Positions 4,800 through 62,021 of a stretch of 62,021 nt of DNA are shown piece after piece. The stretch comes from a virus (lineage: Duplodnaviria > Caudoviricetes), in the IMG/VR virus record IMGVR_UViG_3300012665_000376, positions 1 through 62,021 of that record, one strand, 5' to 3'. Numbering within the stretch: position 1 is the first letter of the stretch; each line of letters opens with the position of its first letter. The position numbers and the translations under genes are program-made. The notes beneath the pieces were generated by a model that was not told where the DNA came from, ran no database searches, and saw only the letters and a program-made list of their open reading frames with translations.

Positions 4800-4800
4800 T

Positions 4801-9435: not shown

Positions 9436-9446
9436 ATTGTAAACTA

Positions 9447-9478
9447 TTTGTTTTATAAAAATCAATCCCGTATATTTG
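9447..9478 (+). promoter_or_regulatory. Bacteroidota-type promoter
   Basis: TTTG (9447-9450), 20-nt spacer, TATATTTG (9471-9478), immediately after the terminator. Confidence 0.8.
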
Positions 9479-9498
9479 TCAAAGAAATCAATCAAACA

Positions 9499-9678: not shown

Positions 9679-9694
9679 ACCAAACAAATAAAAT

Positions 9695-10411
9695 ATGGCA
9701 CGTTCAGATGCATACGCTACAACAGCGCAATCCCCAGTTAAGAAGTATTTATCTTGGTCTTCTAATGACAAGTGTTTTACTTATTGGGACAAAGAGGCAA
9801 AAGAAAACAAGAAACTTTCATTGCCTGTAAAGTTTATTCACTACGATGAAATGGCTACCATCAAAGGATGGCACGATGGCTCAGGGTCAGGCATTTACTC
9901 TAATGAAGTGAAGTCTACAAAGACTGAACCATTCACGGTTCGTGCGTTTAAGGGAGGCGAAATTGCTTCAGGCTTATACCAAGACATCAAAGGCAAAGTT
10001 AACTCGTCAGGAGGCGATTATTACGTTAGCTTGTACGCAGAATTAGGTGGAGAGGTAGTTAACTTTTCATTTAAAGGAGCGGCTTTAATGACGTGGTCTA
10101 ACTTTTCTAAGGAGAATCGCAAGCAATTCTTAGGTAACTACATCAATGTTCTTTCAGCATCTGATGAGAAGAAAGGTTCTGTTAAGTATAGTGTGCCTGT
10201 ATTTACTATTGGTAATGATATCGACTCTTCAGTAAGTGAAGCTTCAGACAAGAATTACGACAACTTAGTTGACTACTTTAAAGCGCGCAAGGCTAACTCA
10301 GCTTCGTCTGCTGAAGAAGTTCAGAGTCACACCGCTGAGTCTATCTTTGCGCCTAAAGATGACTTCCCTACAACTGCATTCGAAGATGCTTCAAGCGAAC
10401 TTCCTTTCTAA
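9695..10411 (+). CDS. single-stranded DNA-binding protein
   Basis: aromatic beta-rich core and acidic tail ending ..EDASSELPF; located in the recombination module. Confidence 0.7.
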   Translation: MARSDAYATTAQSPVKKYLSWSSNDKCFTYWDKEAKENKKLSLPVKFIHYDEMATIKGWHDGSGSGIYSNEVKSTKTEPFTVRAFKGGEIASGLYQDIKGKVNSSGGDYYVSLYAELGGEVVNFSFKGAALMTWSNFSKENRKQFLGNYINVLSASDEKKGSVKYSVPVFTIGNDIDSSVSEASDKNYDNLVDYFKARKANSASSAEEVQSHTAESIFAPKDDFPTTAFEDASSELPF

Positions 10412-10412
10412 G

Positions 10413-10883
10413 ATGAACGAACTAGCAACTCTAAAGAAAAGTACGATTGTCTCCGCTGACAAACGAGAAATGACAAACATTGTGAGCCAATATCTTGAGG
10501 ATATGGCTTACAATGGCGGAGAACCTCTAAAGGATTTAGCATTGTGTAGAAAATACATATTTTTGCTAGAAGAATTAGAGAAAGGTCTGAAAGACTTTGC
10601 GATTACGGAACTAGAGTCATACGAAAGAAACGAAACTGACGTACTAGGAACAACTGTTAAGGCTGTTGAAGCTGGCGTTAAATGGGACTTCTCAGCATCA
10701 TCTGCTTGGGCTACCCAAAAGGCTAGAGTAGATGCCGAATCTAAAAGACTAAAAGATATCGAAGCATTTGCTAAGACACTTAAGTCTAAGACTACAGTTG
10801 TAGACGAAGAAACAGGAGAGGCAGTAGAATACTTTCCTCCAGCTAAATCAAGTTCAACATCAATTAGAGTAACCTTATCGTAA
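10413..10883 (+). CDS. hypothetical protein (recombination module)
   Basis: ORF 10269..10883; ATG 10413 follows the SSB stop. Confidence 0.7.
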   Translation: MNELATLKKSTIVSADKREMTNIVSQYLEDMAYNGGEPLKDLALCRKYIFLLEELEKGLKDFAITELESYERNETDVLGTTVKAVEAGVKWDFSASSAWATQKARVDAESKRLKDIEAFAKTLKSKTTVVDEETGEAVEYFPPAKSSSTSIRVTLS

Positions 10884-11020
10884 TGGAAAATAGAAACTTT
10901 AACCAGGTGTGGGATAACATAGGCGCTCAGCTTTATAACCTACACCGACAAAAGATAGACTCAGCTAAGGCTAAGTTCGCCAAAGAGAAAGAAGATGATA
11001 AATATAATAAAAGAGATTAG
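10883..11020 (+). CDS. small hypothetical protein (45 aa; not in the ORF track)
   Basis: MENRNFNQVWDNIGAQ... starting at a TAATG overlap. Confidence 0.45.
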   Translation: MENRNFNQVWDNIGAQLYNLHRQKIDSAKAKFAKEKEDDKYNKRD

Positions 11021-11225
11021 AACTGAACTAGGAATGACTCAGGCGGTATTTGCTAGAGAGGCGGGATTCAATACCGTTCAGCAGATATCAGGACTAGAGA
11101 ACAACCAACGTGGCATAGGATTTAATCTCCTAGGTAAGATGGTTAGAAACTTGTCTGCTAATGGTCATCCAATTAATCTCGACGTCAACTTAACTGTTGG
11201 AGAAAAGACACTAAGAATCCACTAA
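10995..11225 (+). CDS. XRE/Cro-family HTH regulator
   Basis: IKEIRTELGMTQAVFAREAG...ISGLENNQR. Confidence 0.85.
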   Translation: MINIIKEIRTELGMTQAVFAREAGFNTVQQISGLENNQRGIGFNLLGKMVRNLSANGHPINLDVNLTVGEKTLRIH

Positions 11226-11626
11226 TGGTAATAGACGAAGAGATTGCAACAATTCAAATAGAGTGGGAGGGGGTTGACTTATCTCTTAACAAATGGTACG
11301 CGAATAGACACTGGTCTTTCCGTAACAAAGAAAAAGAGTTCTGGGCTAACCTCTTCCTTAAGTTGCTTCCTAAGCGCACAAAAAAGATAGACAAGTATAT
11401 TATAACAATGTACTTCAATAGTCGCTTAGACGCCAGTAATACCGTGCCTATGATTAAGATTCTAGAGGATACTATGAAGAAAGCACACTACATTGTAGAT
11501 GACTCCAAAAAATTCTGCAAAGGTATTCAAATTTACCCAGATGAAAATCTAGGTAAGAAGCATTACAAGTTAACAGTTCACATCCTATCCTATGCAACTA
11601 AAGAAACTAAAGCTTATCGCGCCTGA
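11225..11626 (+). CDS. RusA-like Holliday junction resolvase
   Basis: LSLNKWY...RLDASN...KILEDTMK...IVDDS pattern of the RusA family. Confidence 0.75.
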   Translation: MVIDEEIATIQIEWEGVDLSLNKWYANRHWSFRNKEKEFWANLFLKLLPKRTKKIDKYIITMYFNSRLDASNTVPMIKILEDTMKKAHYIVDDSKKFCKGIQIYPDENLGKKHYKLTVHILSYATKETKAYRA

Positions 11627-12116
11627 TACTTACCAAGAAAAGCTATCGGATATATTTTCAAAGGAAGTCTTCTATACTAATCTTGATAAATATAAACAGC
11701 GAAATCAATCAGATGTTAAAAAAGTAATATCTGATATCTATATAGGCAAGATGGCTGAATTTGCTGTATGGAATTACCTACAACGAGATGGTAAAGACGC
11801 TACATTCCCTGACATTATGATATATTCTGCTAACAAAAAATCATATGACGCCGACATTACAGCAGGGGATGTTAAGATTCACGTCAAGTCTTGTGTTGCA
11901 ATGGGAGTTTACCCTATAAGCTGGGTATTCCAACCCAATGACCCCGTTACAATTAGCCCCTCTAATAAAGACTTCCTAGCGCTTGTTTCTATTGAGGATG
12001 ACAATTCCTTTAATGCGTACTTTGTTAAGGCATTAGATGTTCTGAAAATATACGAGAAGCCTAAGAAAGAAGGATTAGATAAAAAAGTTATTTACGAATC
12101 AACCTTACTACAATGA
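11592..12116 (+). CDS. PD-(D/E)xK restriction-endonuclease-like protein
   Basis: GKMAEFAV...YDADI...IHVKS arrangement. Confidence 0.55.
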   Translation: MQLKKLKLIAPDTYQEKLSDIFSKEVFYTNLDKYKQRNQSDVKKVISDIYIGKMAEFAVWNYLQRDGKDATFPDIMIYSANKKSYDADITAGDVKIHVKSCVAMGVYPISWVFQPNDPVTISPSNKDFLALVSIEDDNSFNAYFVKALDVLKIYEKPKKEGLDKKVIYESTLLQ

Positions 12117-12262
12117 CATCAGCAACAATATTCTTAATTACAATGGCTGTATTATTTATAGTCGTATACAACTGGGTTAAAGGCATAGACTATATGCAAA
12201 AAAACCACCCTGATTACAAAGGAGAAGATTTCTTAGGAGAAGAAGAGGAGGTGGCTAAATGA
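12113..12262 (+). CDS. small membrane protein (49 aa; not in the ORF track)
   Basis: MTSATIFLITMAVLFIVVYNWVKGID...; last + strand gene, abuts the convergent stop. Confidence 0.55.
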   Translation: MTSATIFLITMAVLFIVVYNWVKGIDYMQKNHPDYKGEDFLGEEEEVAK

Positions 12263-14891: not shown

Positions 14892-17800
14892 TTATCTTTC
14901 TCTTAAAACACCTTTGTTTTCGTAAATTTTCTTATAATACATCATTGTCATTGGATTAGCAATGCCCATTATTTTTAAATCACGCATCACTTGTTCGTTT
15001 TCTAATACGTTAAAATTAGGGAATGACGCGTATAGAACTTTAGCTCTTGATTCATCAGATGTTGCACCAAATGCAATAGCTCCATATCTGAATTTATTAC
15101 TTGGGATTGCTAAATAAGTTTCCTCAGTTAATGCCTTATAATAGTTTGCCGCATATTTCTTGTCTCCAATATCAGATATAGAAGTAATGTAACTAACAGC
15201 TTCTTTCATAGGAGTTTTATCCTCAGCCATTTTCTGTAGGTCATACTTAATTTCTTGTCTGAATGAACCTACATTTTTGTTTTCTTGCTCAACAATATCC
15301 TGTACATTAATGTACTTTCCATTATTCTTTTTATCAGTAGTACCCGTTGCTCTACCTAATAAATCCGAAACTGGCTGTACTGCAAAGTCTCCTATTTTCT
15401 GACCAGCATATTTAGACTGTTCTTTTGGAGATAATCCACCTAATGACTGAGGTATTAAGTTCACAAACTTATCCATCATAGTATATGCTAAACCAACTGC
15501 AATGTTAGTGTGCGGATTAGTTATCATATCTTCAACAGCTTTTTGTGTTCTAGCAGGAGATACCTCTAACCCAACGTTGTCAGCAACCTTAGCCATCATC
15601 TTGTAGAACCCAAGAACATTCTCATTAAATCTTCCCTCGTCTTTAGTGTTGACAACTTCGTAATTAACATCTCTTCCTGTCCAAAGATTCTTGTTTGCCG
15701 CATACTCATAAATAGCCTTAGCAGATGGAGGCATCATTGTAGTAAACTTAGGCAACATCATAGCCAAATCTTCTTGGAAAGTTTTAGCTAATACGCCATT
15801 CAATTTTTCAGGAGTTTTAGCTATGTTCTTGTAATACATACCCTCTCCCATATTTTGGAATAAATTCCATATTGATTTAACTCCAGTTGGCACAGGTATT
15901 TCTGCATACGAATGAGTTCCATCCGAGTTCTTAAATGGAGAGAACACCAATAGCTTACCTGCTTTTGCTTGTTGTAAGTCATCGTTATCCCATTCATCTC
16001 CAGCGACCATCATATTATATATTGTAAGCGCCATTACACCAAGCCCTGTCTGTGCAATCTTATTAAAGAATTTAACAGGATTGTTTTTAATGTACTCAAC
16101 AGTTATTCTTGTGCCTTGAAAAGCTACGTTAAGGTATGGGATAAAACCATCTAAGTATTTAGTCAATAGACCACCTCTGTGGAAATCCATTGCACCTCTA
16201 GCTTCATAAGCAGCCCTAGACTTAATCTTCTCCATAGCCGCCGCATCTGGAGTTTGACCATTGTTTTCGCTTTCGAATTTAGCTATCTCTCTTTCTTTGA
16301 CAGACTTATAAGCATTTAACTTAGAAGCTAATTCCGATATGTTACCAAGGTAAGATAGAGCTTCTTCAACCTTATTTAGAATGGGTCTATTTGAAGTTCC
16401 CTCCTGAGACTGGGTCATCATTAAACCACCTGCCTGTGCGTATTCTAGCGCTAATGCTGAAGTAGCCTTGTCCTTTGCAATAAGAGACTTAGCAGTTGAT
16501 AACGTACCAGAAATAGCTTTATTATACTCTCCAGCTACGCCAACGCTTCCACCATTATACACATCATTAAAGTGAATCTGAGAAAGTAAGTCAATTGGAA
16601 TATTGGTAATAAAGAATCCAATGTTCATACCTGTTGCAAGCTGTCTCAAAATTTGCGCTCCTGACGCTTTAGCTAATATTTTGTATGCTGAATGGTTTGT
16701 ATTCCATTTCTCTACATCTGAGAACTCATTAGCTAAATCTGACTGTAATTGAAATCCTTGGTTAACTCCATTAACCTTAAATATCATATTAGTAAATCCG
16801 TATGACGATTCCTTGAACTTTAATGAACCATCTTTATTAGTTGCAATAGAACCGTCCGCGCGTCTTTCGTAGTTTAATTCTTTAAAGAATGGCAAGTTCT
16901 TTCCAGCACCCTCTTGGAAGAAAGTTTGTAAAGCTTTGTTAGTCATTACCTTATGTTCTGTAGCCACCATTGCTGAGTGCAATAGTTTCATAGAATCAGT
17001 CTCTAGGTAATCTAAACTTCCATCTTTAATACCCTTTATTTCATCTTGATTTAAAGTTACACCTCTATTAGCATATAGATTAGCATTGGTATCGCCAAAC
17101 ATATGTTCAAAGAATTTACGCGGGCTATAGTTATAGTCCTTGTACATATCATATTCCTCTTTAGTAATAAGTCCGTTATCGTACTTATACTTTAAAAGGT
17201 CAGAGAATGTACTGAAATACTTATTTGACTTATCGTATATCTTGTTATACGCCTCATCTCCTAAAGATTTCTTGTAGTCAGCCAATGTTTTTTCAGCCGA
17301 CTCTTTGTTAGTAGTTACATCCTTTCCATTTACATCTGTATGGGTAGGGTGGTCTGGTCTATTTTTAGTAGCCGCTTTCTCTTTTAAATCTTTAATTTCT
17401 TTGTCAATAGCCGATATTTCCTCTTTTGTTTCAGCAATCTTTCTAAGGTCTAATAAATCCTTGATTTTCTGAAGAAGTAAGTTTCTTTGATTGTCAAAGT
17501 TTGCATCAATAGCAGCTACACGGCGCAAGAAGACAAAGTCATCTAATCTAGCCACCTCTTCTTTTGTCAAATCAGAATAGATGTCCTTAAATATTCCTTG
17601 GAACTTAAAGTTTGCTAATGGAGCTGCCCCCGCTTTATTAACTAAAGCGTATAAAGAGAACTCCATATCAGCATCTGCTAAAGCGCGTCTAATGTTTATT
17701 TGTCTGTCAAATAGCCATTTCTGTACTTCAGTTGGAAACTTCTTAATATCAAACTTTCTTTTCTGTTCAAAAGCTTTCTTGGACGCCTGAGTTGCGTTAG

Positions 17801-20800
17801 GTACTTTTTGTTGTTTTAATCCACCTCTTGTGGATTCCCCGACAACACCTTGTCCAGCTCCATCAACTCCTCTTCCGACATCTCCTTGTTGAGTATTTTC
17901 TGTACCCCCTTCTTGAACAGGTTTTGCCCAAGTTGGGTCTTTGATTCCTCCTGCAAATTCATCGATTTGTTTTCTTGCTTCATCTATTGATATTTTATTG
18001 TTTGCGTAATTATTCCAAATACTCTCTACTTTAGCTACGTTTTGTTTGCTGTTTTTAAACGTTGCTGTAAATAATCCACGAATAGCTTCCCAAGTAATAC
18101 TTTGCACTTGTCTTGGCAATAAATCAGTTTCTTTTGCGGCTAACTTATAGCCTTCTGCATAAGCGTAATATAATCCTTTTATTCCCAATGGAGAAGAATT
18201 CTTAGTCCCTGTGCCAAAATTTTGCCCTACTTGTTTTGAATTTCCAGACAACGGCATTAATAATGCAGCAGCAATCGCGTGAGTATCCATTGTAACATCT
18301 TGGTCTTTAGACATAGGGTCTATGATGTTATTATAGAAATTCCTAATCTTGTGCATTTCGCCAAGTGACCTAGTAATATTCTCTTGGCTACCATCTAAAT
18401 AGATAGCGTTAGCTTTGTTAATCTCTGTATAAGAACCCCAGGCTACCTTAGCTTTTTCTCCATCATTTTTTACGGCAAGACCCATTACCTGACCATCTGG
18501 ACGTAGTACATCATAATCTTTTGTTACATTAACTTCGTTCCAAAGACGTGTATAATATCCTTTCATTTCATCAGGGACATCATACATTCTTTTTCCCGTT
18601 AACTCTGCTATTGAATCAATTACTCTGTTTGAGTTATCTAGATTTTTATTATATTTATCATTAGCAGAACGCAATTTTTCTTTACTATCTTTTAAAACTT
18701 GTTTAGCAGCAGTAATATCTTGTTTTGTGGATTCTTTATTTTCAGAAACTAGTTCAACATTCTTTTTAGCCGCTTCGTATGCTTTCTTTGATTTATTAAC
18801 TTCTCTTTTTACTGGAGTTAATCCTTCTTTAGCAATTAATTTCTGCTTTTCAACCATCTCCTTACTCATTACTGGATTAGCTTCGTGAGCCATTAATACC
18901 ATTTCAGCCAACCTCACGTTTTGATACCAGTCTTTTTGAGGAGACAATGAAGCCATAACACCTGCAACTTGTTCTTTAGTTATCCCATATTTTTTAGATA
19001 AATCTTGGGCTAAAATATTTGCACCATCATACCACAAAGTAGAAACCTCTTTGTAGTTTTCATTAAAGTTCTCCATTAAATACTCAAGATTGTTAGCAAC
19101 TTCTCTTGAAAAAACATCATATACTTCTTGAGCATCTTCAATTGTTGTAATGTTGCTTTTATTAACAATGCCTGAAACTAAAGGATAGTTTGCTATGATA
19201 TTTGAGTTGGCAATAAATAATTCTGGAGCATTAGCTTTCACATATTCTAATGATAAATCTTCTGCCTCTTGAACTACTTTTTTACCATTCTTGGTAGATA
19301 CAGATAATCCCTTAGAGACTCTATTGCCTGCTCTTGATAATGTTCTAATTTCCTTTACATCAATGTTTTTAACAGATGTAATTTTTTGCTGCCTAAATCC
19401 TGTAACCTCTTGATTTGCTTCAGTATTCCCAATTAATTTCTCTATTCTAGATACATCAATACTTTTACCCGACTGTATTGACCTAGCTAAGTCAGTAAAG
19501 AATTTCATATCTTCTTGAGCAGACGAAGATTCTGGGAATAATTTATCAGCCAATTTCATTAATGGCTGGTTATTCATTTTCTTCGCTACTTTTTGAATGA
19601 ACTCTTTAATAGCCATTCTTATTTTGTGCAATCTACTAGGAGTAAACTTAACGTCTCCTTTCGTTAACATACCCGCTAATTCAGACAAGAATTCTTCTGC
19701 CTGCATATCTACGCCATCTTCTTCGTATTGACCTGCAAATTCTTGCAATCTAGAACGTTGTGGCTCAGGTATAAATGGTAGGATTCTCTCTACCATATTA
19801 GCAAATTCTTTAGGGTTTTGCTTAGCTAAAGGCAATAATACCGCGTGAGTTACTTCGTGTGGAAGTGTTGTCCCAGTTAAGGTATTAATGATATTACCCG
19901 CCGAATCTTTAGATGACTTATTAATGTGTACGTTGCCCGTAGCTGGGTTAAATAATCCTCCAGCACCCAAAGATACCTCGATAGCTCTTTCGCGGCTTAC
20001 ACCCTCGTTAACCAAGCCCTCAATCATAGAGTCTTCGTTATCGTAGATAATCATCTTAGAGTTTGGAGACACTGAGGTTAATGCCTTGTATGCATTAGAT
20101 ATAATAGTCTTGACTTGTGCTCCTAATGTATTAGATATAGGGTTATCTGTGCGTTGTTCAAATTCACTATCAACCTCTACTGCTTGACGCGGCGTTAAAT
20201 TAGTCGTAGGCTCAACTTGTTGAGTTGTAGTTGTTTGCTGTGTTGTAGGACTAACAGTTGGCGCTTTTCTGCCTGCCAATTTAGTCGTCCAATCAAATCC
20301 CATTCCAACGGTTTCTTCTGTAACTGCTTGCTCAAATATTGCATCAGAAACTGTGCCTAATTTGTCTTGCTTAGCTTTTAAAGCTATGTCTAATGCTAAG
20401 TCAGGATTATTAACCTCAAACGTCGTATTGTTTCTGTTGTCTCTTAATACAACACCTGATACATTACCATCCTCATCAAATTTGCTCTCCACAAATTCAG
20501 TAAAGTTTGTATCTATGACAATAGGATTTTTAGCTGCCTTATTTTGTTCGTCTCGTATTTTAGCTTTTTTATTGAAAGAAACTTTAGGCTTCAATATAAC
20601 TTTTCCCGACGGAGTAACTTCTGCAACCGTGTTGGTTACTGTTCCATCTTCTGAAGTGACTGTGACTGCATTTCCTGCCCATCTGCTGTTTGCAACTGAT
20701 TGGGCTGCTCCTTGCCTTTCAACTCTTCCAATTTCTCTAGAACTTTTAGTTGTTTGTCTTTCGGTAACCTCTGTAAAATCAGTTTTTGTTGCAAATTCAT

Positions 20801-22583
20801 ATCCGTCTAATTTTTGTATTTGTTCAAATATAGGGTCATTAATTAACGCCTTTTGTTCAGGAGTTAAGGTCTCATCTTTTTCTACTCTATCAGCAATTGT
20901 ATATAACTCATCAGCTGATTTATCTAATTCATTCTCGTCAATTTCTTTGTTATTATTTAATCTTTCTTGAATAGGCGCTAGTGCATTATTGACACTATTC
21001 ATCATATCAGAAGTTTCATAATATTGACTAGCTACTTCTATATCTTTTTCTGACTGAGTCTTACGAGCTTCAGCAGCAGCTTTTGCTCCTGATGCATCAA
21101 ACTCATCAAATATAGCCTTTCTCTTATTATCTAAGTCTTCTATCTTTAAATCAAAAGTAGTAACCAAGTCTTCGTTATTAGTCATTGACTTAGCGTACTC
21201 ATAATCTTCTATTTTGTTAGTAAGTTTTAATACCTCAACACGTTCTTCAACAGGAAGATTTGCAACTAGTTTATAGTTGTCATTTGCAAGTCCAAAGTTG
21301 TATTTGTAAATATCATCTATTTTCTCTTTAGCAACTTGTTTCGCTTCTGTTGGAATTGATGGGTCATCAACAACTTCTTGTAATTTAGATATTTGTCTCT
21401 CTTGTTCTTTTGTTAAGTTCTGCTTAGATACAGAAGCTCCAATCGAACTAATTGAACCTCCCATAAATCCACCAATAAGCATAGAGTCATAAAAATCATT
21501 TATAGCTCTATCATAATCTTTTTGGTCTAATTTGCCGCTGTCAATAGTATCAACAACAAATCCTGCCGCACTTGCAATACCCTCTTCTAAGGATTCTTGC
21601 GCCATACCTTTAAGACCTTGTTTTACAACACCTCCCCAAGTACGAATAATTGCATCTTTCGCTTCTTTTCTACCTTGACTTTTGATTAGGTTTTTGATTG
21701 CGCTTTTTGCTCCATCATATGTGATATCTGCAATAGCTGCACCTGTACTACGAAGAGTCTTTAAGTCAGCGTCAAAAATCATCTCAGTTAAACCCTCGAC
21801 AACCCCTTTTAGTCCTGACTGAATTACATCTATTCCAGATACATCTTTGTCTTTCTCGTATTCTTCTTGAGCTGCTTGTGTTGAGCCTATTGTAGATGCC
21901 GCCCCAAATCTAGCTAATTTTGTTTCCCCAGCGGCTACAGTTGATATTAATTGAGGTATTTGTTTTACAGACTCAATTCCTAGTTTTAAGAATCCTTGAC
22001 CTGCATCCTCTCGCAATAATTCATTAACAGGCTTTCTTACGTTTTCCTGCTTAAGACCCATTGCTACTGCGCTTTTTTCAAGGTCAGGAGCTATAGAAGC
22101 ATTGTATGTAGACGCAAATTCAGACAACCATTGTGCAGGCGCTTCTACCACGTCTAAAATTGGCTTTATATCCTTTTGGTCTTCAGGATGCAAAGCATTC
22201 TTAATTGGGTTTGTAACTAATTTAGTTAATAATGTAGCTCCACCAGATACAGTGGATATAAGCATTTTCTGCAAAGAAAGTTGGAATGTTTCATTAAGAC
22301 CGCCCCAAAATCCATCCTCTTCCTGTTTCGTAGCCGTAGAAGGCTTCGCCGAAGATGATACCGTATCGACTTTTTTTTTAAATAAATTAATATCGTTGCT
22401 CTCTAATCCTGAGATATCTACTGGCACAACAACGTCTCCAAATTGCATCCCAAATCCGTTACCCTTTTTGCTTTCAATTAACTTGTTAGCATCAAAAGAA
22501 ACAGGGGTTACCATATTGGTTTCTTCGTCTAATATGCCATATCCATTACCACGAGAACTTTTAATTAATCTATTCTTAGCCAT
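14892..22583 (-). CDS. giant internal virion/ejection protein, polyvalent (zincin metallopeptidase, HhH-glycosylase-like domain, LPD38-like C-terminus)
   Basis: HEVTH...AEEFLSE zincin; SLSPQKDW...KIRNFY...VTMDTHA...QVQSITW domain; MDFHRGG...PYLNVAFQG; third gene of the ejectosome block after the tail muzzle. Confidence 0.75.
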   Translation of the reverse strand: MAKNRLIKSSRGNGYGILDEETNMVTPVSFDANKLIESKKGNGFGMQFGDVVVPVDISGLESNDINLFKKKVDTVSSSAKPSTATKQEEDGFWGGLNETFQLSLQKMLISTVSGGATLLTKLVTNPIKNALHPEDQKDIKPILDVVEAPAQWLSEFASTYNASIAPDLEKSAVAMGLKQENVRKPVNELLREDAGQGFLKLGIESVKQIPQLISTVAAGETKLARFGAASTIGSTQAAQEEYEKDKDVSGIDVIQSGLKGVVEGLTEMIFDADLKTLRSTGAAIADITYDGAKSAIKNLIKSQGRKEAKDAIIRTWGGVVKQGLKGMAQESLEEGIASAAGFVVDTIDSGKLDQKDYDRAINDFYDSMLIGGFMGGSISSIGASVSKQNLTKEQERQISKLQEVVDDPSIPTEAKQVAKEKIDDIYKYNFGLANDNYKLVANLPVEERVEVLKLTNKIEDYEYAKSMTNNEDLVTTFDLKIEDLDNKRKAIFDEFDASGAKAAAEARKTQSEKDIEVASQYYETSDMMNSVNNALAPIQERLNNNKEIDENELDKSADELYTIADRVEKDETLTPEQKALINDPIFEQIQKLDGYEFATKTDFTEVTERQTTKSSREIGRVERQGAAQSVANSRWAGNAVTVTSEDGTVTNTVAEVTPSGKVILKPKVSFNKKAKIRDEQNKAAKNPIVIDTNFTEFVESKFDEDGNVSGVVLRDNRNNTTFEVNNPDLALDIALKAKQDKLGTVSDAIFEQAVTEETVGMGFDWTTKLAGRKAPTVSPTTQQTTTTQQVEPTTNLTPRQAVEVDSEFEQRTDNPISNTLGAQVKTIISNAYKALTSVSPNSKMIIYDNEDSMIEGLVNEGVSRERAIEVSLGAGGLFNPATGNVHINKSSKDSAGNIINTLTGTTLPHEVTHAVLLPLAKQNPKEFANMVERILPFIPEPQRSRLQEFAGQYEEDGVDMQAEEFLSELAGMLTKGDVKFTPSRLHKIRMAIKEFIQKVAKKMNNQPLMKLADKLFPESSSAQEDMKFFTDLARSIQSGKSIDVSRIEKLIGNTEANQEVTGFRQQKITSVKNIDVKEIRTLSRAGNRVSKGLSVSTKNGKKVVQEAEDLSLEYVKANAPELFIANSNIIANYPLVSGIVNKSNITTIEDAQEVYDVFSREVANNLEYLMENFNENYKEVSTLWYDGANILAQDLSKKYGITKEQVAGVMASLSPQKDWYQNVRLAEMVLMAHEANPVMSKEMVEKQKLIAKEGLTPVKREVNKSKKAYEAAKKNVELVSENKESTKQDITAAKQVLKDSKEKLRSANDKYNKNLDNSNRVIDSIAELTGKRMYDVPDEMKGYYTRLWNEVNVTKDYDVLRPDGQVMGLAVKNDGEKAKVAWGSYTEINKANAIYLDGSQENITRSLGEMHKIRNFYNNIIDPMSKDQDVTMDTHAIAAALLMPLSGNSKQVGQNFGTGTKNSSPLGIKGLYYAYAEGYKLAAKETDLLPRQVQSITWEAIRGLFTATFKNSKQNVAKVESIWNNYANNKISIDEARKQIDEFAGGIKDPTWAKPVQEGGTENTQQGDVGRGVDGAGQGVVGESTRGGLKQQKVPNATQASKKAFEQKRKFDIKKFPTEVQKWLFDRQINIRRALADADMEFSLYALVNKAGAAPLANFKFQGIFKDIYSDLTKEEVARLDDFVFLRRVAAIDANFDNQRNLLLQKIKDLLDLRKIAETKEEISAIDKEIKDLKEKAATKNRPDHPTHTDVNGKDVTTNKESAEKTLADYKKSLGDEAYNKIYDKSNKYFSTFSDLLKYKYDNGLITKEEYDMYKDYNYSPRKFFEHMFGDTNANLYANRGVTLNQDEIKGIKDGSLDYLETDSMKLLHSAMVATEHKVMTNKALQTFFQEGAGKNLPFFKELNYERRADGSIATNKDGSLKFKESSYGFTNMIFKVNGVNQGFQLQSDLANEFSDVEKWNTNHSAYKILAKASGAQILRQLATGMNIGFFITNIPIDLLSQIHFNDVYNGGSVGVAGEYNKAISGTLSTAKSLIAKDKATSALALEYAQAGGLMMTQSQEGTSNRPILNKVEEALSYLGNISELASKLNAYKSVKEREIAKFESENNGQTPDAAAMEKIKSRAAYEARGAMDFHRGGLLTKYLDGFIPYLNVAFQGTRITVEYIKNNPVKFFNKIAQTGLGVMALTIYNMMVAGDEWDNDDLQQAKAGKLLVFSPFKNSDGTHSYAEIPVPTGVKSIWNLFQNMGEGMYYKNIAKTPEKLNGVLAKTFQEDLAMMLPKFTTMMPPSAKAIYEYAANKNLWTGRDVNYEVVNTKDEGRFNENVLGFYKMMAKVADNVGLEVSPARTQKAVEDMITNPHTNIAVGLAYTMMDKFVNLIPQSLGGLSPKEQSKYAGQKIGDFAVQPVSDLLGRATGTTDKKNNGKYINVQDIVEQENKNVGSFRQEIKYDLQKMAEDKTPMKEAVSYITSISDIGDKKYAANYYKALTEETYLAIPSNKFRYGAIAFGATSDESRAKVLYASFPNFNVLENEQVMRDLKIMGIANPMTMMYYKKIYENKGVLRER

Positions 22584-56851: not shown

Positions 56852-57496
56852 CTAGTCTTTAGAGCATAAAATATCGCCCTGGCGCACTGTATAATACTCT
56901 TTTCCCTCTATGGTATTTTTAAAGTTTGAGTTTTTGTTTAAAATTACTAGTGCCCCGCTGTTAACTTTTAACTCATCTGTATTGACTAATGGTTTACCAA
57001 TATGTGCAAGCCTAGCAAACTTAGTAGATGGCTTCTTGTTGATACCAATTACTAGACCTGAAGCCGATGTTATAGCCTCAATCTTTTGACCGTTAACTTC
57101 AACGTGATTAAACTCTTCTTCAACCACTGTTTCACATAAAGTCCAGCCACCAACAGGTAATATATTACCACTCCTAACGATACAAAATACCCAATAATAA
57201 GGTACTTTATAATAGTTCCCGTAGATACAGTTCGTTTCATCAGATGTAGTTAAGTAATGAAAGTAAATAATGTCCCCTACCTGTACTTCCTTTTCAATCT
57301 CAAAGCCCTCTTCGTTGTAAGCTTTTCCATCAGGCACAGCTATTACACGACCATAGATTCTGGCGTACTGCGTAGGATTAAATTCAGGGTCTATATGGAG
57401 CTTTAAATTACCGTATTGGACAGTATCATCCAAAGCAGCACCCACTTCAACCACGACCGTATTTGGTGGCGATTTCTTGATATCGTAAGTAAGCAT
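56852..57496 (-). CDS. co-chaperonin GroES-like protein with two tandem GroES domains
   Basis: GRVIAVP..EVQVGDIIYF, then LPVGGW..SASGLVI..IEGKEYYTVRQGDIL. Confidence 0.75.
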   Translation of the reverse strand: MLTYDIKKSPPNTVVVEVGAALDDTVQYGNLKLHIDPEFNPTQYARIYGRVIAVPDGKAYNEEGFEIEKEVQVGDIIYFHYLTTSDETNCIYGNYYKVPYYWVFCIVRSGNILPVGGWTLCETVVEEEFNHVEVNGQKIEAITSASGLVIGINKKPSTKFARLAHIGKPLVNTDELKVNSGALVILNKNSNFKNTIEGKEYYTVRQGDILCSKD

Positions 57497-57522
57497 TAAA
57501 ATGTTTGTTTGGTTTGTAAAGG

Positions 57523-57553
57523 TAAAGATAGATAGATAAGGTCATATATACAA
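57523..57553 (-). promoter_or_regulatory. promoter candidate for the late operon
   Basis: - strand TTG (57553-57551), 20-nt spacer, TATCTTTA (one mismatch to TAnnTTTG). Confidence 0.5.
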
Positions 57554-58091
57554 TAATTACTATCATATGCTTCGTCGGTCAATTTGCTCTAAACGCAGTT
57601 TTTGCACCGTGTGGTTGTAGATTCAGGGTTATATGTGATTGGGCGTGGGTCGCGCGCGAGAACGACAAACGACTTTTGGCGATGGGGTGGGGTCGCATTT
57701 CAGAATCCGAAATCCAAAAATTAGGTCAATGTATTACTGTGATACAATAAACAATTTCCTAATGTATCCTCCTGATACAATGGATCTATATCGGCATTAT
57801 ATTACCGATGTCATCTTCAGCAAGAGAGAAACAATACTCTACTAGTCAAGTAGGGAAATATTTGTACAGAATAATGCCCTCTAGGATAATGTGAGGGGGT
57901 AAATGACCTAGGCGGACTACCCGCCACGCATCCACACCCATAGAAAACACCCCATTTTACTAGCATTCGTTTTAAGGGGTCATATCTTCGATTTAAGACA
58001 CTTTACCCCCTAGAATGTCCATTCTATCCACCTAGAGCGAGATAATGCCTTAGACGCAAAATAGGGGTAATTTTGATGTTAAAAATTCTGC

Positions 58092-58220
58092 TATACGCGT
58101 GTGCGTGTGTGATGTGCGCCTACGCGTGTGTGCTCGCGTGTATGTGCGTGTGTGTGCATACCTGCGCGACGTGTGTACGCTTGCGCGTGTCGTGATGTGC
58201 GCGCAATACGCGTGTGTGCG
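58092..58220. repeat. alternating purine-pyrimidine (GT/GC) tract
   Basis: ~130 nt of mostly (GT)n/(GC)n; TACGCGTGTG three times and GTGATGTGCGC twice. Confidence 0.85.
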
Positions 58221-58299
58221 GTTTCAGTATCTTTTAAAGGGGTTTCTCTTAGAATAGTACAAAAACAGTATATTTTCGTTGTATTATTCTAAGAAAATG

Positions 58300-58332
58300 G
58301 GGATTTCGTCTACACATTTCGGGATTTCGTCT
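58300..58332. repeat. direct repeat upstream of the early promoter
   Basis: GGGATTTCGTCT at 58300-58311 and 58321-58332 (21-bp period). Confidence 0.7.
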
Positions 58333-58361
58333 CATATCAGGGTTATTTTAAGGGGGTGCTA

Positions 58362-58391
58362 TTGTAAATCAAAAAGTTTAGGCAATCTTTG
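58362..58391 (+). promoter_or_regulatory. early promoter candidate
   Basis: TTG (58362-58364), 19-nt spacer, AATCTTTG (one mismatch); the structured RNA begins about 7 nt downstream. Confidence 0.6.
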
Positions 58392-58398
58392 TAATGTC

Positions 58399-58863
58399 AT
58401 CAGCGGGGAAACGTCCTCAAAGGCAAAATATCCACTTTATGTGGGGGTAAAGAGAACACCCTAAATTCTCCCTGTCCCGAAAGAGGGGCATTGCAAGGCA
58501 AGTATACTGAACGCACGGATTGGCTCAGTAAGTAGAACGCCCCACATAGCACCATTACGCTAGGCACTTGGATGAGCAGTTTATCGCTCCAGTGTATAAA
58601 CCTCCCGACCTGATACATACGATGGTCGACTGCGGTAGTCAGCTAGGTTAAACCCGATGCCCCCGCGATATGTGAGCCTCTACTTGCATCCCTAATTGAC
58701 GGAAGGTTAAAAGTTCTGCGCGGTAGAGGGAAGATTTTATGCAAGGTTCTGTGGACTGAACCTGCCCGTCAGCAAAGGCGGTTACAAAAACGCCACTCAT
58801 TCAAGGCTTATGAATACGGCTAGGCAATGGATTGCCAGTGCGGTTCGATTCCGCACCTAGTCG
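58399..58863 (+). ncRNA. large structured non-coding RNA or 5' leader (unidentified)
   Basis: GC-enriched, no + strand ORF, more than 10 nested stems, a pseudoknot and a 3' tRNA-like element. Confidence 0.7.
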
Positions 58864-58882
58864 CTAACTTAAACACACACAA

Positions 58883-59122
58883 ATGAAAGCAACAAAAATT
58901 ACAAGATATTCGCAAGGCGAATACATTGCTGATGTAGAGAATTTAGGGCAAATGTGGGGATTTGATAGATACGAAATTACATTCTATCTAGACAATTGGT
59001 GCGACTTAAAGCTAACTACTAGTATGATTGTAGAGACTACAGAATATTCGTCTGTTACGAATCACATCAAGCAATACTTTAACGAACAAAAAGAAATTAA
59101 ATCAACTATCCTTTCGGTGTAG
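58883..59122 (+). CDS. hypothetical early protein
   Basis: 79 aa; ACACACACAA leader. Confidence 0.7.
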   Translation: MKATKITRYSQGEYIADVENLGQMWGFDRYEITFYLDNWCDLKLTTSMIVETTEYSSVTNHIKQYFNEQKEIKSTILSV

Positions 59123-59131
59123 GTAACCGAA
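59108..59131 (+). promoter_or_regulatory. early-gene hairpin/pseudoknot motif, copy 1
   Basis: ATCCTTTCGGTGTAGGTAACCGAA; TCGGT/ACCGA stem; ATG 10 nt downstream. Confidence 0.8.
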
Positions 59132-59140
59132 TCAAATCTT

Positions 59141-59422
59141 ATGAAATTCAATGTATTAGCAGAAGCAATGTTACAAATCAAGGAGTTAGGCTTAGAGGGT
59201 CAATCATTCACGATGAGTCAGAAAGTATATGAGGACAAGAAAGACGAAAAGTATGAGGTTATAATCATCGAGGTAAGATTTGACCCCGAGTTAATGAAGA
59301 AGTTATCCGCTATTAGCAATCACACTAGCTTCTTCCCATCTACCAATGGCAAAGAGCGCTACTTAGGATTCAATACGATGCGCTCTAGCGAGGGCGACAG
59401 ACTTGACTTCCATCTAGTGTAA
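59141..59422 (+). CDS. hypothetical early protein
   Basis: 93 aa; stop codon lies in hammerhead stem I. Confidence 0.7.
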   Translation: MKFNVLAEAMLQIKELGLEGQSFTMSQKVYEDKKDEKYEVIIIEVRFDPELMKKLSAISNHTSFFPSTNGKERYLGFNTMRSSEGDRLDFHLV

Positions 59423-59465
59423 CTGATGAGTCCTAATGGACGAAACCCCTACGGGGGTCTTACAC
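59417..59465 (+). ncRNA. type I hammerhead ribozyme
   Basis: stem I GTGTAA/TTACAC; core CTGATGA; stem II GTCC-TAAT-GGAC; GAAA; stem III CCCC-TACG-GGGG; GTC cleavage triplet (cut after 59459). Confidence 0.95.
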
Positions 59466-59468
59466 ATT

Positions 59469-59491
59469 ATCCTTGCGGTGTAGGTAACCGC
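59469..59491 (+). promoter_or_regulatory. early-gene hairpin/pseudoknot motif, copy 2
   Basis: ATCCTTGCGGTGTAGGTAACCGC; ATG 10 nt downstream. Confidence 0.8.
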
Positions 59492-59501
59492 GACACACAT
59501 T

Positions 59502-59912
59502 ATGAGAAAATTATTTAATCAAGCAATCGAATTGACTCAAGAAGAAGCAATTAACCACCCACGTCGCGAGTATAACGCCCGCATTTGGAAGCAAGAAATC
59601 GAGCGCTATGCCAAATACAACGGCAAGTTCTACGATTTAGGCAAGGGCAAAAGCGAGTATTCTCAAGGCGAAGTAGGAGTTGTATACGAAATCGAGGGCG
59701 TTCGCCAGTTTAGAGTGGTAGAATATTCGGCAAGCCTTAGCGCTTACGATGGTGTAGGTCGGGTATTCGTATCAGAAGATGGCGTTCATTTTGAGAAATT
59801 TAGAAACGCCGATGGCGATGAAGGTTATATATCCTACCGCAAGAATCTACCATTTTTGCGTAGAATGTGCAATAATTTCCCATCTTTTAACGTAGGCTCT
59901 CCTAGCCTTTAA
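59502..59912 (+). CDS. hypothetical early protein
   Basis: 136-aa ORF. Confidence 0.75.
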   Translation: MRKLFNQAIELTQEEAINHPRREYNARIWKQEIERYAKYNGKFYDLGKGKSEYSQGEVGVVYEIEGVRQFRVVEYSASLSAYDGVGRVFVSEDGVHFEKFRNADGDEGYISYRKNLPFLRRMCNNFPSFNVGSPSL

Positions 59913-59916
59913 GACT

Positions 59917-60003
59917 ATGAAATACTTAATCCCATTCTTCTTCGCGCTTGCTATCTATATGGTAGCGAGCGCCTTAATTCAAATCGCTCAAATACTATCC
60001 TAA
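59917..60003 (+). CDS. small hydrophobic peptide (28 aa; not in the ORF track)
   Basis: MKYLIPFFFALAIYMVASALIQIAQILS. Confidence 0.5.
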   Translation: MKYLIPFFFALAIYMVASALIQIAQILS

Positions 60004-60006
60004 TAT

Positions 60007-60129
60007 ATGAATACCTTAAACAAAGTAATCGTCTTCTTCCTAGGGGAGGAGGCGTCACAAGACAAGGGCGAACTAATCACGGCTCTAGCAATCGCAACCT
60101 TATGCGCATTCCTTTTACCATTACTATAA
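60007..60129 (+). CDS. small membrane peptide (40 aa; not in the ORF track)
   Basis: MNTLNKVIVFFLGEEASQDKGELITALAIATLCAFLLPLL. Confidence 0.5.
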   Translation: MNTLNKVIVFFLGEEASQDKGELITALAIATLCAFLLPLL

Positions 60130-60163
60130 TATCCCACTATCAACTTTAACACACACAAATCTT

Positions 60164-61081
60164 ATGGCAACTCAAGCAGAATTAATCGACAATATTAATG
60201 ATACAATTATCGCGGGCTTACAAGCTAAGGGCTTGCAATGGTTCAAGCCTTTCAAGGATAGCACCACCTTACAATGGAACGCTATCAGTTCGTCGGGCAA
60301 ACCATACCGCGGTATTAATCAGTTCATCCTATCAGCTAAGGCTATCGACAAAGGATGGGTTAATAAGTGGTACACCTTTAACCAAGTAAGCAAGCTAGAC
60401 GCTCGCGTTAACAAAGGCGAAAAGTCTACAGACGTTTATCTTTGGAAGGTCAACTTTGCGGTAGAAATTGCGGGCAAAGTTCAATATTTCCCACGCATCG
60501 AAGATATCCCATCGCACCTACAAAAGGGGGCTAAGAAAGCGTTTTACCTACAGACATTCAAGGTGTTTTCAATTTCGCAAACGACTTTGCCCCTAGACAC
60601 TCCCGCGCAACCTATCGAGGTTACAGAATTGGAAGCGGACGCACACGCTGAAGCTATCCTAAAGTCTTGGGCTAAAGAGGTAACATTAAAGCATAGTGGT
60701 CTAGGACGCGCTTACTATTCGCCTAGCGGGGACTACATCCATATGCCCGCTAAGACTACAGACCAATGGAAATCTAACGGGGATTATTACAAGGTATTCT
60801 TTCACGAAGCTATCCATAGCACTGGTCATTCGTCACGCCTTAATCGCCTAGATAAAACGGCAAACTTTGGCTCTAGCGAATACTCTAAGGAAGAATTGGT
60901 AGCAGAACTAGGCGCGCTATATTTAGAGGCTATCACGGGCATTCAGACAATCGTCGACGATGTCAAGAATTCGCAAGCATACATCAACGGATGGATTAGC
61001 AAACTAAAGTCTGACCCTAAGTTGATTATGAGTGCATCTACCAAGGCACACGAAGCAGTAGACTTAATTCTTTCAAAGTAA
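60164..61081 (+). CDS. ardC: ArdC-family antirestriction protein (ssDNA-binding domain plus zincin-like domain)
   Basis: WFKPF...PYRGIN...WYTFNQ...VNKGEK; AYYSP..DYIHMP; HEAIHSTGH..RLNR..YSKEELVAE. Confidence 0.9.
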   Translation: MATQAELIDNINDTIIAGLQAKGLQWFKPFKDSTTLQWNAISSSGKPYRGINQFILSAKAIDKGWVNKWYTFNQVSKLDARVNKGEKSTDVYLWKVNFAVEIAGKVQYFPRIEDIPSHLQKGAKKAFYLQTFKVFSISQTTLPLDTPAQPIEVTELEADAHAEAILKSWAKEVTLKHSGLGRAYYSPSGDYIHMPAKTTDQWKSNGDYYKVFFHEAIHSTGHSSRLNRLDKTANFGSSEYSKEELVAELGALYLEAITGIQTIVDDVKNSQAYINGWISKLKSDPKLIMSASTKAHEAVDLILSK

Positions 61082-61094
61082 TTTCCACTATCAA

Positions 61095-61118
61095 ACCTTG
61101 CGGTGTATAGGTAACCGC
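61095..61118 (+). promoter_or_regulatory. early-gene hairpin/pseudoknot motif, copy 3
   Basis: ACCTTGCGGTGTATAGGTAACCGC; ATG 8 nt downstream. Confidence 0.85.
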
Positions 61119-61126
61119 TCACTATT

Positions 61127-61351
61127 ATGAATAATATCAAAAAATGGTATACTACCGCTTTTGAGTCCGATGAATTGGGCTTAGAAATTAATCCAAATGC
61201 TACCTTTTTAGGTTTGATTGGGAATATTGGAGATGTTTATGAATACGTTGGGGTATCGGACTCTTTAGTAAGAGAAAGGTTATTTGAGCGCGTAGCTGAA
61301 ATAATGGAGTGTACATACGATGAAGTTTATAATCTTTGGATAGAGGCTTAA
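61127..61351 (+). CDS. hypothetical early protein
   Basis: 74 aa; DVYEYVGVSDSLVRERLF. Confidence 0.75.
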   Translation: MNNIKKWYTTAFESDELGLEINPNATFLGLIGNIGDVYEYVGVSDSLVRERLFERVAEIMECTYDEVYNLWIEA

Positions 61352-61363
61352 TTAATAACAATA

Positions 61364-61387
61364 ACCTTGCGGTGTATAGGTAACCGC
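61364..61387 (+). promoter_or_regulatory. early-gene hairpin/pseudoknot motif, copy 4
   Basis: identical 24-mer; ATG 8 nt downstream. Confidence 0.85.
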
Positions 61388-61395
61388 ATAATCTT

Positions 61396-61716
61396 ATGGA
61401 AAATCAATTATTTATATTAAGAACAAAGTATGCAGAAATCATAGAGAAATTTGCGTACGCTGAAGAATTGACTTACTATCATAGCGAATATGACAATGAG
61501 ATAACTATTTATTTCGACAATCTATATCAGATGAGTTTTAAGACTCAAGCATTAATTGATGCAAATGAGCAAGGATATGTTATTCCTTGGAATAAATTCG
61601 ATGACGAGCAAGAGAACATAGAACTTTCGAAGGATTTACCTATGGAAGAATTTAAGAATTGGGTAAGCGAAGAAAGAGAGCGTCAGTATATGATTTACTT
61701 AAACGAAAGAAAATAG
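61396..61716 (+). CDS. hypothetical acidic early protein
   Basis: 106 aa, rich in E/D and aromatic residues. Confidence 0.75.
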   Translation: MENQLFILRTKYAEIIEKFAYAEELTYYHSEYDNEITIYFDNLYQMSFKTQALIDANEQGYVIPWNKFDDEQENIELSKDLPMEEFKNWVSEERERQYMIYLNERK

Positions 61717-61722
61717 CTAATA

Positions 61723-61746
61723 ACCTTGCGGTGTATAGGTAACCGC
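61723..61746 (+). promoter_or_regulatory. early-gene hairpin/pseudoknot motif, copy 5
   Basis: identical 24-mer; ATG at 61756, 9 nt downstream. Confidence 0.85.
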
Positions 61747-61755
61747 ATTAACACT

Positions 61756-61929
61756 ATGAATAATAGATATGTAATCACATTTGGATTTGAAGGAGAAAAC
61801 GGCTTTCAAGTACAAAAATCCAAACCAATCCAAGCTAGTGATGAGCAAGAGGCTTGCCAAATGTTATCTAATCAATTCGAAAATTACGAAGGAATTCCTA
61901 TTGACATCCTTTTAGTAACTAAACAATAA
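61756..61929 (+). CDS. hypothetical early protein
   Basis: ORF 61726..61929; start moved to ATG 61756, downstream of the motif. Confidence 0.7.
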   Translation: MNNRYVITFGFEGENGFQVQKSKPIQASDEQEACQMLSNQFENYEGIPIDILLVTKQ

Positions 61930-61936
61930 TCATTTA

Positions 61937-61960
61937 ACCTTGCGGTGTATAGGTAACCGC
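61937..61960 (+). promoter_or_regulatory. early-gene hairpin/pseudoknot motif, copy 6
   Basis: identical 24-mer; ATG at 61971, 10 nt downstream. Confidence 0.85.
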
Positions 61961-61970
61961 TTACAAACTT

Positions 61971-62021
61971 ATGGAACTTTCAACATTGCATTACGCACAA
62001 AGAAACCTTGACATCATTGCT
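61971..62021 (+). CDS. 5' part of the ORF that continues at position 1
   Basis: ATG follows motif copy 6; open to the end of the window and in frame with 1-87. Confidence 0.7.
   Translation, partial: MELSTLHYAQRNLDIIA

Follow-up and report, generated by a model that had tools for sequence, protein, structure and literature searches.

Near one end of a tailed-phage genome, small early genes are repeatedly preceded by the same short hairpin, placed where other bacteria have a Shine-Dalgarno (SD) sequence. Is this hairpin a promoter, a terminator, a DNA repeat that bounds gene cassettes, or a part of the messenger RNA, and what might it do there? The window analysed here is the whole of IMG/VR virus record IMGVR_UViG_3300012665_000376 (Caudoviricetes; 62,021 bp; CheckV completeness 97; classed as linear). 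The comparisons described below revealed that the hairpin motif is a base-paired RNA element of mRNA leaders, that it is spread over the mobile elements of the Bacteroidota, and that it is uncatalogued in Rfam. It may act on translation initiation.

Hairpin motifs in the window

The pattern CCTTKCGGTGT-N0-2-AGGTAACCG matched the window six times, always on the + strand, with the CCT beginning at 59110, 59471, 61096, 61365, 61724, and 61938, and found no match in 100 dinucleotide shuffles of the window. These are the six sites proposed in an earlier note on this DNA, whose starts (59108 to 61937) include one or two flanking bases. A seventh copy was not found in the 62,021-bp record by a search tolerating up to 6 errors, the sole extra match being a weak and unrelated one at 35538, and there was no match in the window on the reverse strand or to the pattern read backwards.

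The stem is TCGGT/ACCGA in copy 1 and GCGGT/ACCGC in copies 2-6, which constitutes one compensatory change within the window. The loop is GTAGGTA in copies 1-2 versus GTATAGGTA in copies 3-6, a difference of a 2-nucleotide (nt) indel, and its AGG is complementary to the upstream CCT in all six copies. The spacers between the end of the stem and the ATG are 10, 10, 8, 8, 9, and 10 nt. No copy contains the TAnnTTTG box of the host promoter, and no T-run follows on the 3′ side. The earlier note had described each of these features, and all were seen again in the window; its spacer lengths proved exact when read from the sequence and the starts of the open reading frames (ORFs).

Secondary structure and covariation

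An exact-pattern scan of IMG/VR returned 15 stretches, and a substitution-tolerant search of these, in which pairing was not required, gave 38 matches. This pairing-free search already yielded compensated stem variants (UCCGU/ACGGA, UUGGU/ACCAA, and ACGAU/AUCGU). A covariance model of the stem only (R1) was built from 31 copies, and the final set comprised 133 covariance-model matches, 117 of them distinct, from related freshwater phage contigs, IMG/VR viruses, and bacterial islands.

Pairing in the stem reaches 98.1% among the 117 distinct sequences. Pair 11-32 shows no mismatch (AU in 62, GC in 55), and the closing pair 8-36 is GC in 47, AU in 39, GU in 9, UA in 9, CG in 2, and something else in 11. 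The covariation score was 0.253, compared with 0.110 in shuffles (none of 500 reached 0.253) and at most 0.063 in slid controls, for an alignment that is fitted to the model and in which many loci were fetched by patterns fixing CCT and AGG; a smaller, earlier sequence set agrees. The motif is a base-paired RNA element, the structure of which is kept through compensatory changes.

The consensus reads (A)ACCU(U/C), then a 5-bp stem enclosing a loop of 7-10 nt (mostly 9) of the form GUA(N)AGG(Y)A, and the element is 23-25 nt long. The CCU and the loop AGG are invariant and complementary, at three of three pairs, in 115 of 115 distinct sequences. In 2.5 Mb of loci, 154 hairpins of the motif type carry both CCU and AGG, and the only start-codon-linked deviant that keeps the CCU has UGG (the same contig under two loci).

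Position in mRNA leaders

The copies are always co-oriented with the downstream gene. The stem ends 7-13 nt before the ATG in 72 of 74 phage copies, and 7-14 nt before it in 48 of 58 bacterial copies. In 53 of the 74 phage copies, an upstream same-strand ORF ends no more than 20 nt before the CCU or overlaps the motif. An exact TAnnTTTG −7 box was located 26-82 nt upstream of 13 of 67 bacterial copies, and because this box stands upstream at a varying distance, the motif of these copies lies in the 5′ untranslated region and is not itself the promoter.

Two standard identities were considered and rejected. The Bacteroidota sigma-A promoter (TTG-N17-21-TAnnTTTG) has no box inside or right after the motif, its boxes being found elsewhere and upstream; an intrinsic terminator does not fit a stem of only 5 bp that is followed by an A/C-rich spacer and an ATG, with no U-run. 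The motif is an mRNA leader, and neither promoter nor terminator. The earlier note had interpreted it as a structured translational or mRNA-end element of an SD-less host. What stands of that interpretation is a strand-specific, paired RNA element at the start codons of such a host, and the role in translation is treated below as a proposal.

In one orthologous chromosomal locus of Chryseobacterium and Epilithonimonas (L132, L136, L145, L158, L163/L210, and L213), the motif follows the end of a conserved ORF, and the ATG lies 24-44 nt further on (20-38 nt when counted more strictly), behind an A/U-rich spacer; this locus is the chief departure from the 7-14-nt spacing.

Distribution in Bacteroidota mobile elements

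The covariance-model search of metagenomes and Rfam that the earlier note had suggested recovered many phage copies and no Rfam match, and it also placed the motif beyond phages, which had not been foreseen. Five whole records of relatives contain 4-8 copies each (R1, E ≤ 0.05), on one strand and within 1.8-3.5 kb. Among 78 loci fetched via the terminase, all 75 matches lie 2.5-9.3 kb upstream of the terminase and on the other strand, in 15 loci with a terminase at least 75% identical. The motif was found in none of 45 loci with a terminase 34-39% identical, and in none of 18 others, including most of the 77-79% group. Copy number varies from 4 to 14 between close relatives. Motif-free relatives carry plain A-rich leaders at the same positions, as seen in the 4 loci inspected (L033, L038, L040, and L049; terminase 78-79% identical), where leaders of the form AAACAATCAAAACAA precede the early genes; these four provide natural partners for a comparison with and without the motif.

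A degenerate scan of one genome per species gave at least 120 stretches, with about 400 chance matches expected in 596 Gb. Among the 120 matches listed, 61 are from Bacteroidota, as judged from the record titles and the taxonomy of the names. From these 120, 53 stretches were picked by eye for an A-rich flank with an ATG behind, and the remaining 67 were set aside, being probably chance matches from G+C-rich genomes. The 53 comprise 50 Bacteroidota, 2 metagenome-assembled genomes (MAGs) named only "bacterium", and 1 MAG labelled Acutalibacteraceae, the copy of which is nearly identical to one from Segatella copri. The bacterial form is AAACCUC-(A/G)CGAU-GUA(N)AGG(Y)A-AUCG(U/C).

Chromosomal islands with the motif were found in Bacteroidales and Chryseobacterium. 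In five host genomes, all matches lie on one contig each, with 1-4 per genome, and the bacterial copies belong to arrays of small genes that share one strand. Behind or close to the copies are genes for ParB-like, DUF932, DUF2779, PDDEXK_4, BspA-type leucine-rich repeat (LRR_5), uracil-DNA glycosylase (UDG)-like, ATP-dependent ligase, and AAA proteins, a set that we take to mark accessory or leading-type regions of mobile elements. One array of about 35 small same-strand genes (L221; G008:C21 1-20000), in which the ParB-like and DUF932 genes are headed by the motif, looks like the leading or accessory region of an integrated mobile element. In a group of rumen Bacteroidales (L124, L140, L148, L183, and L212), the motif is bracketed by CUUCGG and CCGAA(A)G, flanks that could add an outer helix to the structure, and the downstream gene encodes a conserved protein of about 360 residues without a Pfam match.

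BLAST searches with a 34-nt motif sequence matched 59 Flavobacterium phage records (F. columnare phages); in F. columnare phage V175, it occupies an intergenic site and is followed after 7 nt by a 16-codon ORF that carries no annotation. The same query matched 3 gut microviruses of about 6 kb. In Capybara microvirus Cap1_SP_66 (L230, 1200-1228), the record of which annotates 6 features, the motif follows the stop of the major capsid gene, and an 8-nt spacer separates it from the ATG of a 98-aa ORF, which in turn precedes the minor capsid gene; the motif is likewise present in H2 and H3, and microviruses are single-stranded DNA phages. A second scan of IMG/VR gave 40 stretches in contigs of 4.4-182 kb, with fewer than one expected by chance, and an ATG stands at 6-14 nt in 26 of 37 new matches. 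BLAST of the PLSDB plasmids gave no match to the motif. The motif was found in none of 150 other genomes of the phylum of one host by a search with strict filters that scored 50 candidates per genome (E ≤ 0.001). No protein common to the window and to other motif-bearing elements was detected by blastp (E ≤ 1e-4) in what are partial loci. The motif is spread over the Bacteroidota mobilome, in tailed phages, ~6-kb microviruses, and chromosomal islands.

Genomic setting in the phage

On the + strand, small early genes run from 58883 to the end of the record and are followed by replication genes at 1-12262 (initiator, DnaB-like helicase, exonuclease, and RusA), while the − strand carries the terminase, portal, virion, tail, and lysis genes. 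The last ORF (61971 onward) exits the end of the record in frame with positions 1-87 (17 + 28 codons, then TAA), and because of this continuation the "linear" record is probably a permuted closed circle. The six genes on the 3′ side of the motif are orphans of 45-136 aa. No PHROG or other family match was found for the 5 scanned motif-headed ORFs (the 45-aa wrap-around ORF being outside the scan), or for the orphans among their scanned neighbours. A blastn search of 58800-62021 against 50,697 phage records gave no match to a named phage relative.

No SD sequences were found ahead of the window genes. The promoter form TTG-N17-21-TAnnTTTG has 12 matches in the window, a count made without a shuffle control, including those at 2375, 7550, and 9448 (+) and at 51729, 38819, and 30972 (−). 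A near-consensus promoter-like site, TTG-N19-AATCTTTG, was read by eye at 58362-58391, ahead of the early block. An RNA polymerase was not recognised in Pfam and PHROGs scans of 41 window ORFs, which are part of all the ORFs. The 2563-aa protein encoded at 14892-22583 (−), in which the domains DUF7178 and LPD38 (polyvalent-protein-associated) were identified, matched no PDB sequence at E ≤ 1, RNA polymerases included. Because no RNA polymerase was recognised among the scanned ORFs, the early genes are most simply read as one polycistronic transcript of the host RNA polymerase, with the motif in short intercistronic spacers.

Copy 1 (59110-59130, +; 41.0 bits) consists of the CCU at 59110-59112, a UCGGU/ACCGA stem at 59114-59118/59126-59130, and a 7-nt loop GUAGGUA at 59119-59125, within which sits the TAG stop of ORF 58883-59122; the ATG is at 59141, after a 10-nt spacer, and the hairpin is the minimum free energy (MFE) fold. 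Copy 2 (59471-59491, +; 40.9 bits) has its CCU at 59471-59473, a GCGGU/ACCGC stem at 59475-59479/59487-59491, the same GUAGGUA loop, and an ATG at 59502, again after 10 nt. Copy 3 (61096-61118, +; 45.2 bits) has its CCU at 61096-61098, a stem at 61100-61104/61114-61118, a 9-nt loop GUAUAGGUA, and an ATG at 61127 after 8 nt; upstream of it are the stop of an ArdC-like gene and a TTCCACTATCA box. The loop GUAUAGGUA recurs in copy 4 (61365-61387, +; stem 61369-61373/61383-61387; ATG 61396 after 8 nt; 49.3 bits), in copy 5 (61724-61746, +; stem 61728-61732/61742-61746; ATG 61756 after 9 nt; 49.3 bits), and in copy 6 (61938-61960, +; stem 61942-61946/61956-61960; ATG 61971 after 10 nt; 48.4 bits).

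The ArdC-like anti-restriction gene (60164-61081) lies among the motif-headed early genes and has a leader of a second type. This leader, TT(T)AACACA(C)ACAA, is unstructured and C/A-rich, occurs at 58866-58882, 60145-60163, and 72-88 (+), and precedes the ATGs at 58883, 60164 (ArdC-like), and 89. In a relative (L019/L024), the ArdC-like gene is headed by the hairpin motif instead; since this gene occurs with either leader, the two types are interchangeable in evolution. A further box, (T)TCCACTATCA, recurs at or near gene ends at 60, 3326, 7132, 60135, and 61086 (+). It occupies at least two different reading frames and is therefore a nucleotide-level signal, and in relatives it stands 3-10 nt upstream of some motif copies, as TTCCACTA(T/G)CA.

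RNA-processing signals were found upstream of some copies. A candidate type I hammerhead ribozyme at 59417-59465 (+) lies between the stop of ORF 59141-59422 and copy 2, which begins 6 nt past the match. It has a complete type I core and is a full-length match to Hammerhead_1 at 31.5 bits (E 5.3e-5), just below the gathering score of 34, and its stem I includes the TAA stop of that ORF; the homologous hammerhead in a relative (L022, 6435-6483) scores 34.4 bits, above the gathering score. If the candidate cleaves itself, copy 2 would come to lie close to a newly formed 5′ end. Of the 74 phage copies, 4 are preceded by a hammerhead core and 6 by a tRNA-like T-arm, so that 10 have one or the other directly upstream, and promoter-proximal copies in this phage lineage often come after such signals. 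The context of mRNA-end processing suggested in the earlier note was in this way recovered.

Proposed function and alternatives

The reading we favour, with a confidence slightly above even, is that the motif would be a cis-acting mRNA leader that acts on translation initiation through the host machinery. The early genes would be read as one long transcript of the host RNA polymerase from the promoter-like site near 58362-58391, and the small motif-bearing cistrons would present the motif 8-10 nt ahead of the AUG, where other bacteria have their SD sequence. There the element may act on the start of translation of the gene directly behind it, by anchoring or positioning the ribosome, or by keeping the A-rich start region open whatever lies upstream, and enhancement seems a better fit than repression. 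Its loop AGG may pair with the 5′ CCU as a pseudoknot. The partner would be conserved host machinery, most plausibly the 30S subunit. A host partner is favoured over an element-encoded protein because elements without a detectable common protein (partial loci compared) carry the same invariant loop and flank, and because the motif also occurs in a microvirus whose record annotates only 6 features. In Flavobacterium johnsoniae, the anti-SD tail of 16S rRNA is folded off the exit channel and held by bS21, bS18, and bS6, according to PMC7797042. With the tail so sequestered, a mobile element that needs its genes expressed immediately upon entry would profit from an anchor or spacer at −10 that does not depend on SD pairing.

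A bolder version of this reading, which we regard as unlikely, proposes a "structural ribosome-binding site", in which a CCU:AGG mini-helix on top of the stem would dock in the empty SD-duplex cleft of the Bacteroidota 30S subunit. The CCU:AGG pairing has the sequence of the core of the SD/anti-SD duplex, and stacked on the 5-bp stem it could form a ready-made helix supplied by the mRNA; the exit-channel cleft would be empty because the anti-SD tail is folded onto bS21, bS18, and bS6. If this is true, mobile elements would gain strong, context-independent initiation on SD-blind ribosomes.

Several observations weigh against a leader that promotes initiation. The spacing is not universal: 10 of the 58 bacterial copies fall outside 7-14 nt, eight of them at 1 or at 20-38 nt (six of these eight represent one orthologous locus of Chryseobacterium and Epilithonimonas), and the remaining two lack, within 70 nt, any ORF of 30 aa or more that begins with ATG. 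The pseudoknot lacks covariation support, as none of its three CCU:AGG pairs ever varies, and because both strands are invariant it lies beyond the covariation comparison, for or against. The hairpin is of ordinary stability (MFE −7 to −10 kcal/mol; z −0.4 to −1.2 versus shuffles), and five of the 6 window contexts have the hairpin as their MFE fold, copy 6 folding otherwise in a 63-nt context. Host chromosomes carry the motif rarely, each on a single contig, with no sign of use by host genes. Of 22 sequencing runs listed, 20 contain window DNA, in small shares; all were guessed to be DNA runs, and no RNA run with this DNA was among those listed. A structure this near the AUG could equally block the ribosome, and a specific RNA-binding protein would likewise demand an invariant loop and flank.

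These last two points lead to a translational operator, in which the hairpin would be bound by a sequence-specific protein of the host or the element, and the early or accessory gene set would be repressed, or activated, together. The operators of T4 RegA, gene 32, and gene 43 are parallels. An invariant GUA(N)AGG(Y)A loop and CCU beside a covarying stem is typical of a protein-recognised hairpin, 4-14 copies per phage stand ahead of unrelated genes, and a bound protein 7-13 nt before the AUG would occlude 30S binding. We nevertheless hold this reading to be rather unlikely, since no candidate partner emerged: the six downstream ORFs and their neighbours have no family matches among those scanned, no common protein was detected among the partial loci of motif-bearing elements, and the motif occurs in ~6-kb microviruses with a record of 6 features; a host protein may be the partner. 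The hairpin might alternatively be a 5′-end insulator or stabiliser, a natural counterpart of the synthetic-biology part RiboJ, left near a new 5′ end by the hammerhead, by RNase P/Z at a mini-tRNA, or by host RNases, so that the message is protected, the start region is shielded, and shuffled cassettes work anywhere. The ribozyme directly upstream of copy 2, the hammerhead cores and T-arms upstream of other phage copies, and the strain-variable small genes headed by the motif agree with this, and the terminal hairpin of RiboJ is held to raise mRNA stability and expose the ribosome-binding site (PMC6206723). Yet no ribozyme or tRNA-like element could be recognised upstream of 64 of the 74 phage copies or of any of the 58 bacterial copies, the stem has only 5 bp and ordinary stability, and any stable hairpin would serve, which leaves the phylum-wide invariance of loop and flank unexplained; we consider the stabiliser doubtful.

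An action at the level of DNA, as an N4-type hairpin promoter or as a cassette recombination site of the attC or PeSL kind, appears very unlikely. It would account for copies that bound small variable genes and number 4-14 in close relatives, and the inverted repeat could form in single-stranded DNA such as that of the microviruses. However, neither the 41 scanned ORFs nor the 2563-aa protein revealed an RNA polymerase, the host-type promoters stand upstream at distances that vary, transcription from behind the stem would leave fewer than 10 nt of leader, and G-U pairs are present (9 at one pair); a fixed distance to the ATG and strict co-orientation are needless for recombination, and the motif is tied to the 5′ side of genes. 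Least probable of all, with hardly any weight, is a tiny riboswitch of pseudoknot form, through which a metabolite or signal would control translation. Pseudoknots of the preQ1-I and guanidine-III type are of similar size and position at ribosome-binding sites, and the nucleotides of the motif are highly conserved. Against this, the downstream genes are unrelated and non-metabolic (those for ParB-like, DUF932, DUF2779, PDDEXK_4, LRR_5, UDG-like, ligase, and ArdC-like proteins, and orphans), several copies occur per operon, and no Rfam riboswitch matched. Likeness to an anticodon arm, a D-arm, or helix 45 of 16S rRNA was considered and dropped as unsupported.

Comparison with known systems

The motif is uncatalogued in Rfam. 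Rfam 15 gave no match to it, either in the whole window at the gathering score, or in 57400-62021, 61060-61420, and the bacterial island L221 at E ≤ 10; a RAGATH-7 match at 61780-61935 scores 15.2 bits against a gathering score of 111.8, and was dismissed as noise. A description of the motif, or a functional study of the DUF805b RNA discussed below, was not found in the literature, where the supplements of two large RNA catalogues (PMC10690425 and PMC8040213) may list the motif unnamed; DUF805 is absent from the main text of PMC5737381. What makes the motif of interest is its phylum-wide invariance, its restriction to mobile elements, and its location at the site where a ribosome-binding signal belongs. 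How SD-less Bacteroidota ribosomes choose and rank their start sites is only partly understood, and the motif offers a compact, testable handle on this. It could also serve as a portable part for gene expression in Bacteroides and Flavobacterium, and as a metagenome marker of early and accessory gene arrays in Bacteroidota mobile elements.

Compact structures within the ribosome footprint that set the initiation rate include the T4 gene 32 pseudoknot, the E. coli rpsO/S15 and thrS operators, and preQ1-I. These operators are gene-specific and bound by their own product or ligand, whereas the motif heads many unrelated genes in many elements. The PeSL cassettes of T4-type phages combine a sigma-70 early promoter with a stem-loop, flanking shuffled early genes. 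PeSL and the motif are both repeated short elements that bound small, hypervariable early genes, but PeSL contains the sigma-70 promoter, while the motif has no host promoter box and lies downstream of promoters. The promoters of the N4 virion RNA polymerase are hairpins of 5-7 bp with 3-nt loops, and they need the giant virion RNA polymerase. They share with the motif a short hairpin upstream of early genes, and an N4-type promoter was rejected here, the loops of the motif being 7-10 nt and no RNA polymerase being recognised among the 41 scanned ORFs.

RiboJ consists of the sTRSV hammerhead-type ribozyme and a 23-nt hairpin, as given in PMC6206723. Copy 2 has the same layout, namely a self-cleaving ribozyme (a candidate in copy 2), a hairpin of about 23 nt, and a start region. 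RiboJ differs in that its hairpin has no conserved loop and is followed by a normal SD sequence. Among the motif copies, a ribozyme accompanies just 1 of the 6 in the window and 4 of the 74 in phages.

The closest comparison is with DUF805b (RF02914; gathering score 35.6 bits) and DUF805 (RF03081), of clan CL00115, neither of which matched any scanned copy of the motif; a true DUF805b in a host genome (G007) scores 44.7 bits with the same tool. DUF805b and the motif are both small cis elements of mRNA found before the start codons of many unrelated Bacteroidota genes, and both have a conserved GUAGG(C/U)A-like stretch beside a complementary CC(U), this 7-mer being shared with one mismatch. The consensus of DUF805b is AAGGcGGAAgCCGAAAAgCCUuAAaAGAGUAGGcA. 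In DUF805b, the AGG lies in the 3′ tail after a 4-bp hairpin, whereas in the motif it lies in the loop, with the CCU 5′ of the stem; DUF805b ends 27 nt from the ATG (one example), compared with 7-13 nt for the stem of the motif, and the motif was seen only as clusters on one contig per genome. Because sequence, order of parts, and distance to the ATG differ, the motif is set apart, on sequence comparison, as separate from DUF805b among the short structured leaders of SD-less Bacteroidota genes. If the docking of a CCU:AGG helix proposed above is true, DUF805b, with its GUAGGcA stretch pairing to CC, would be a second solution to the same problem.

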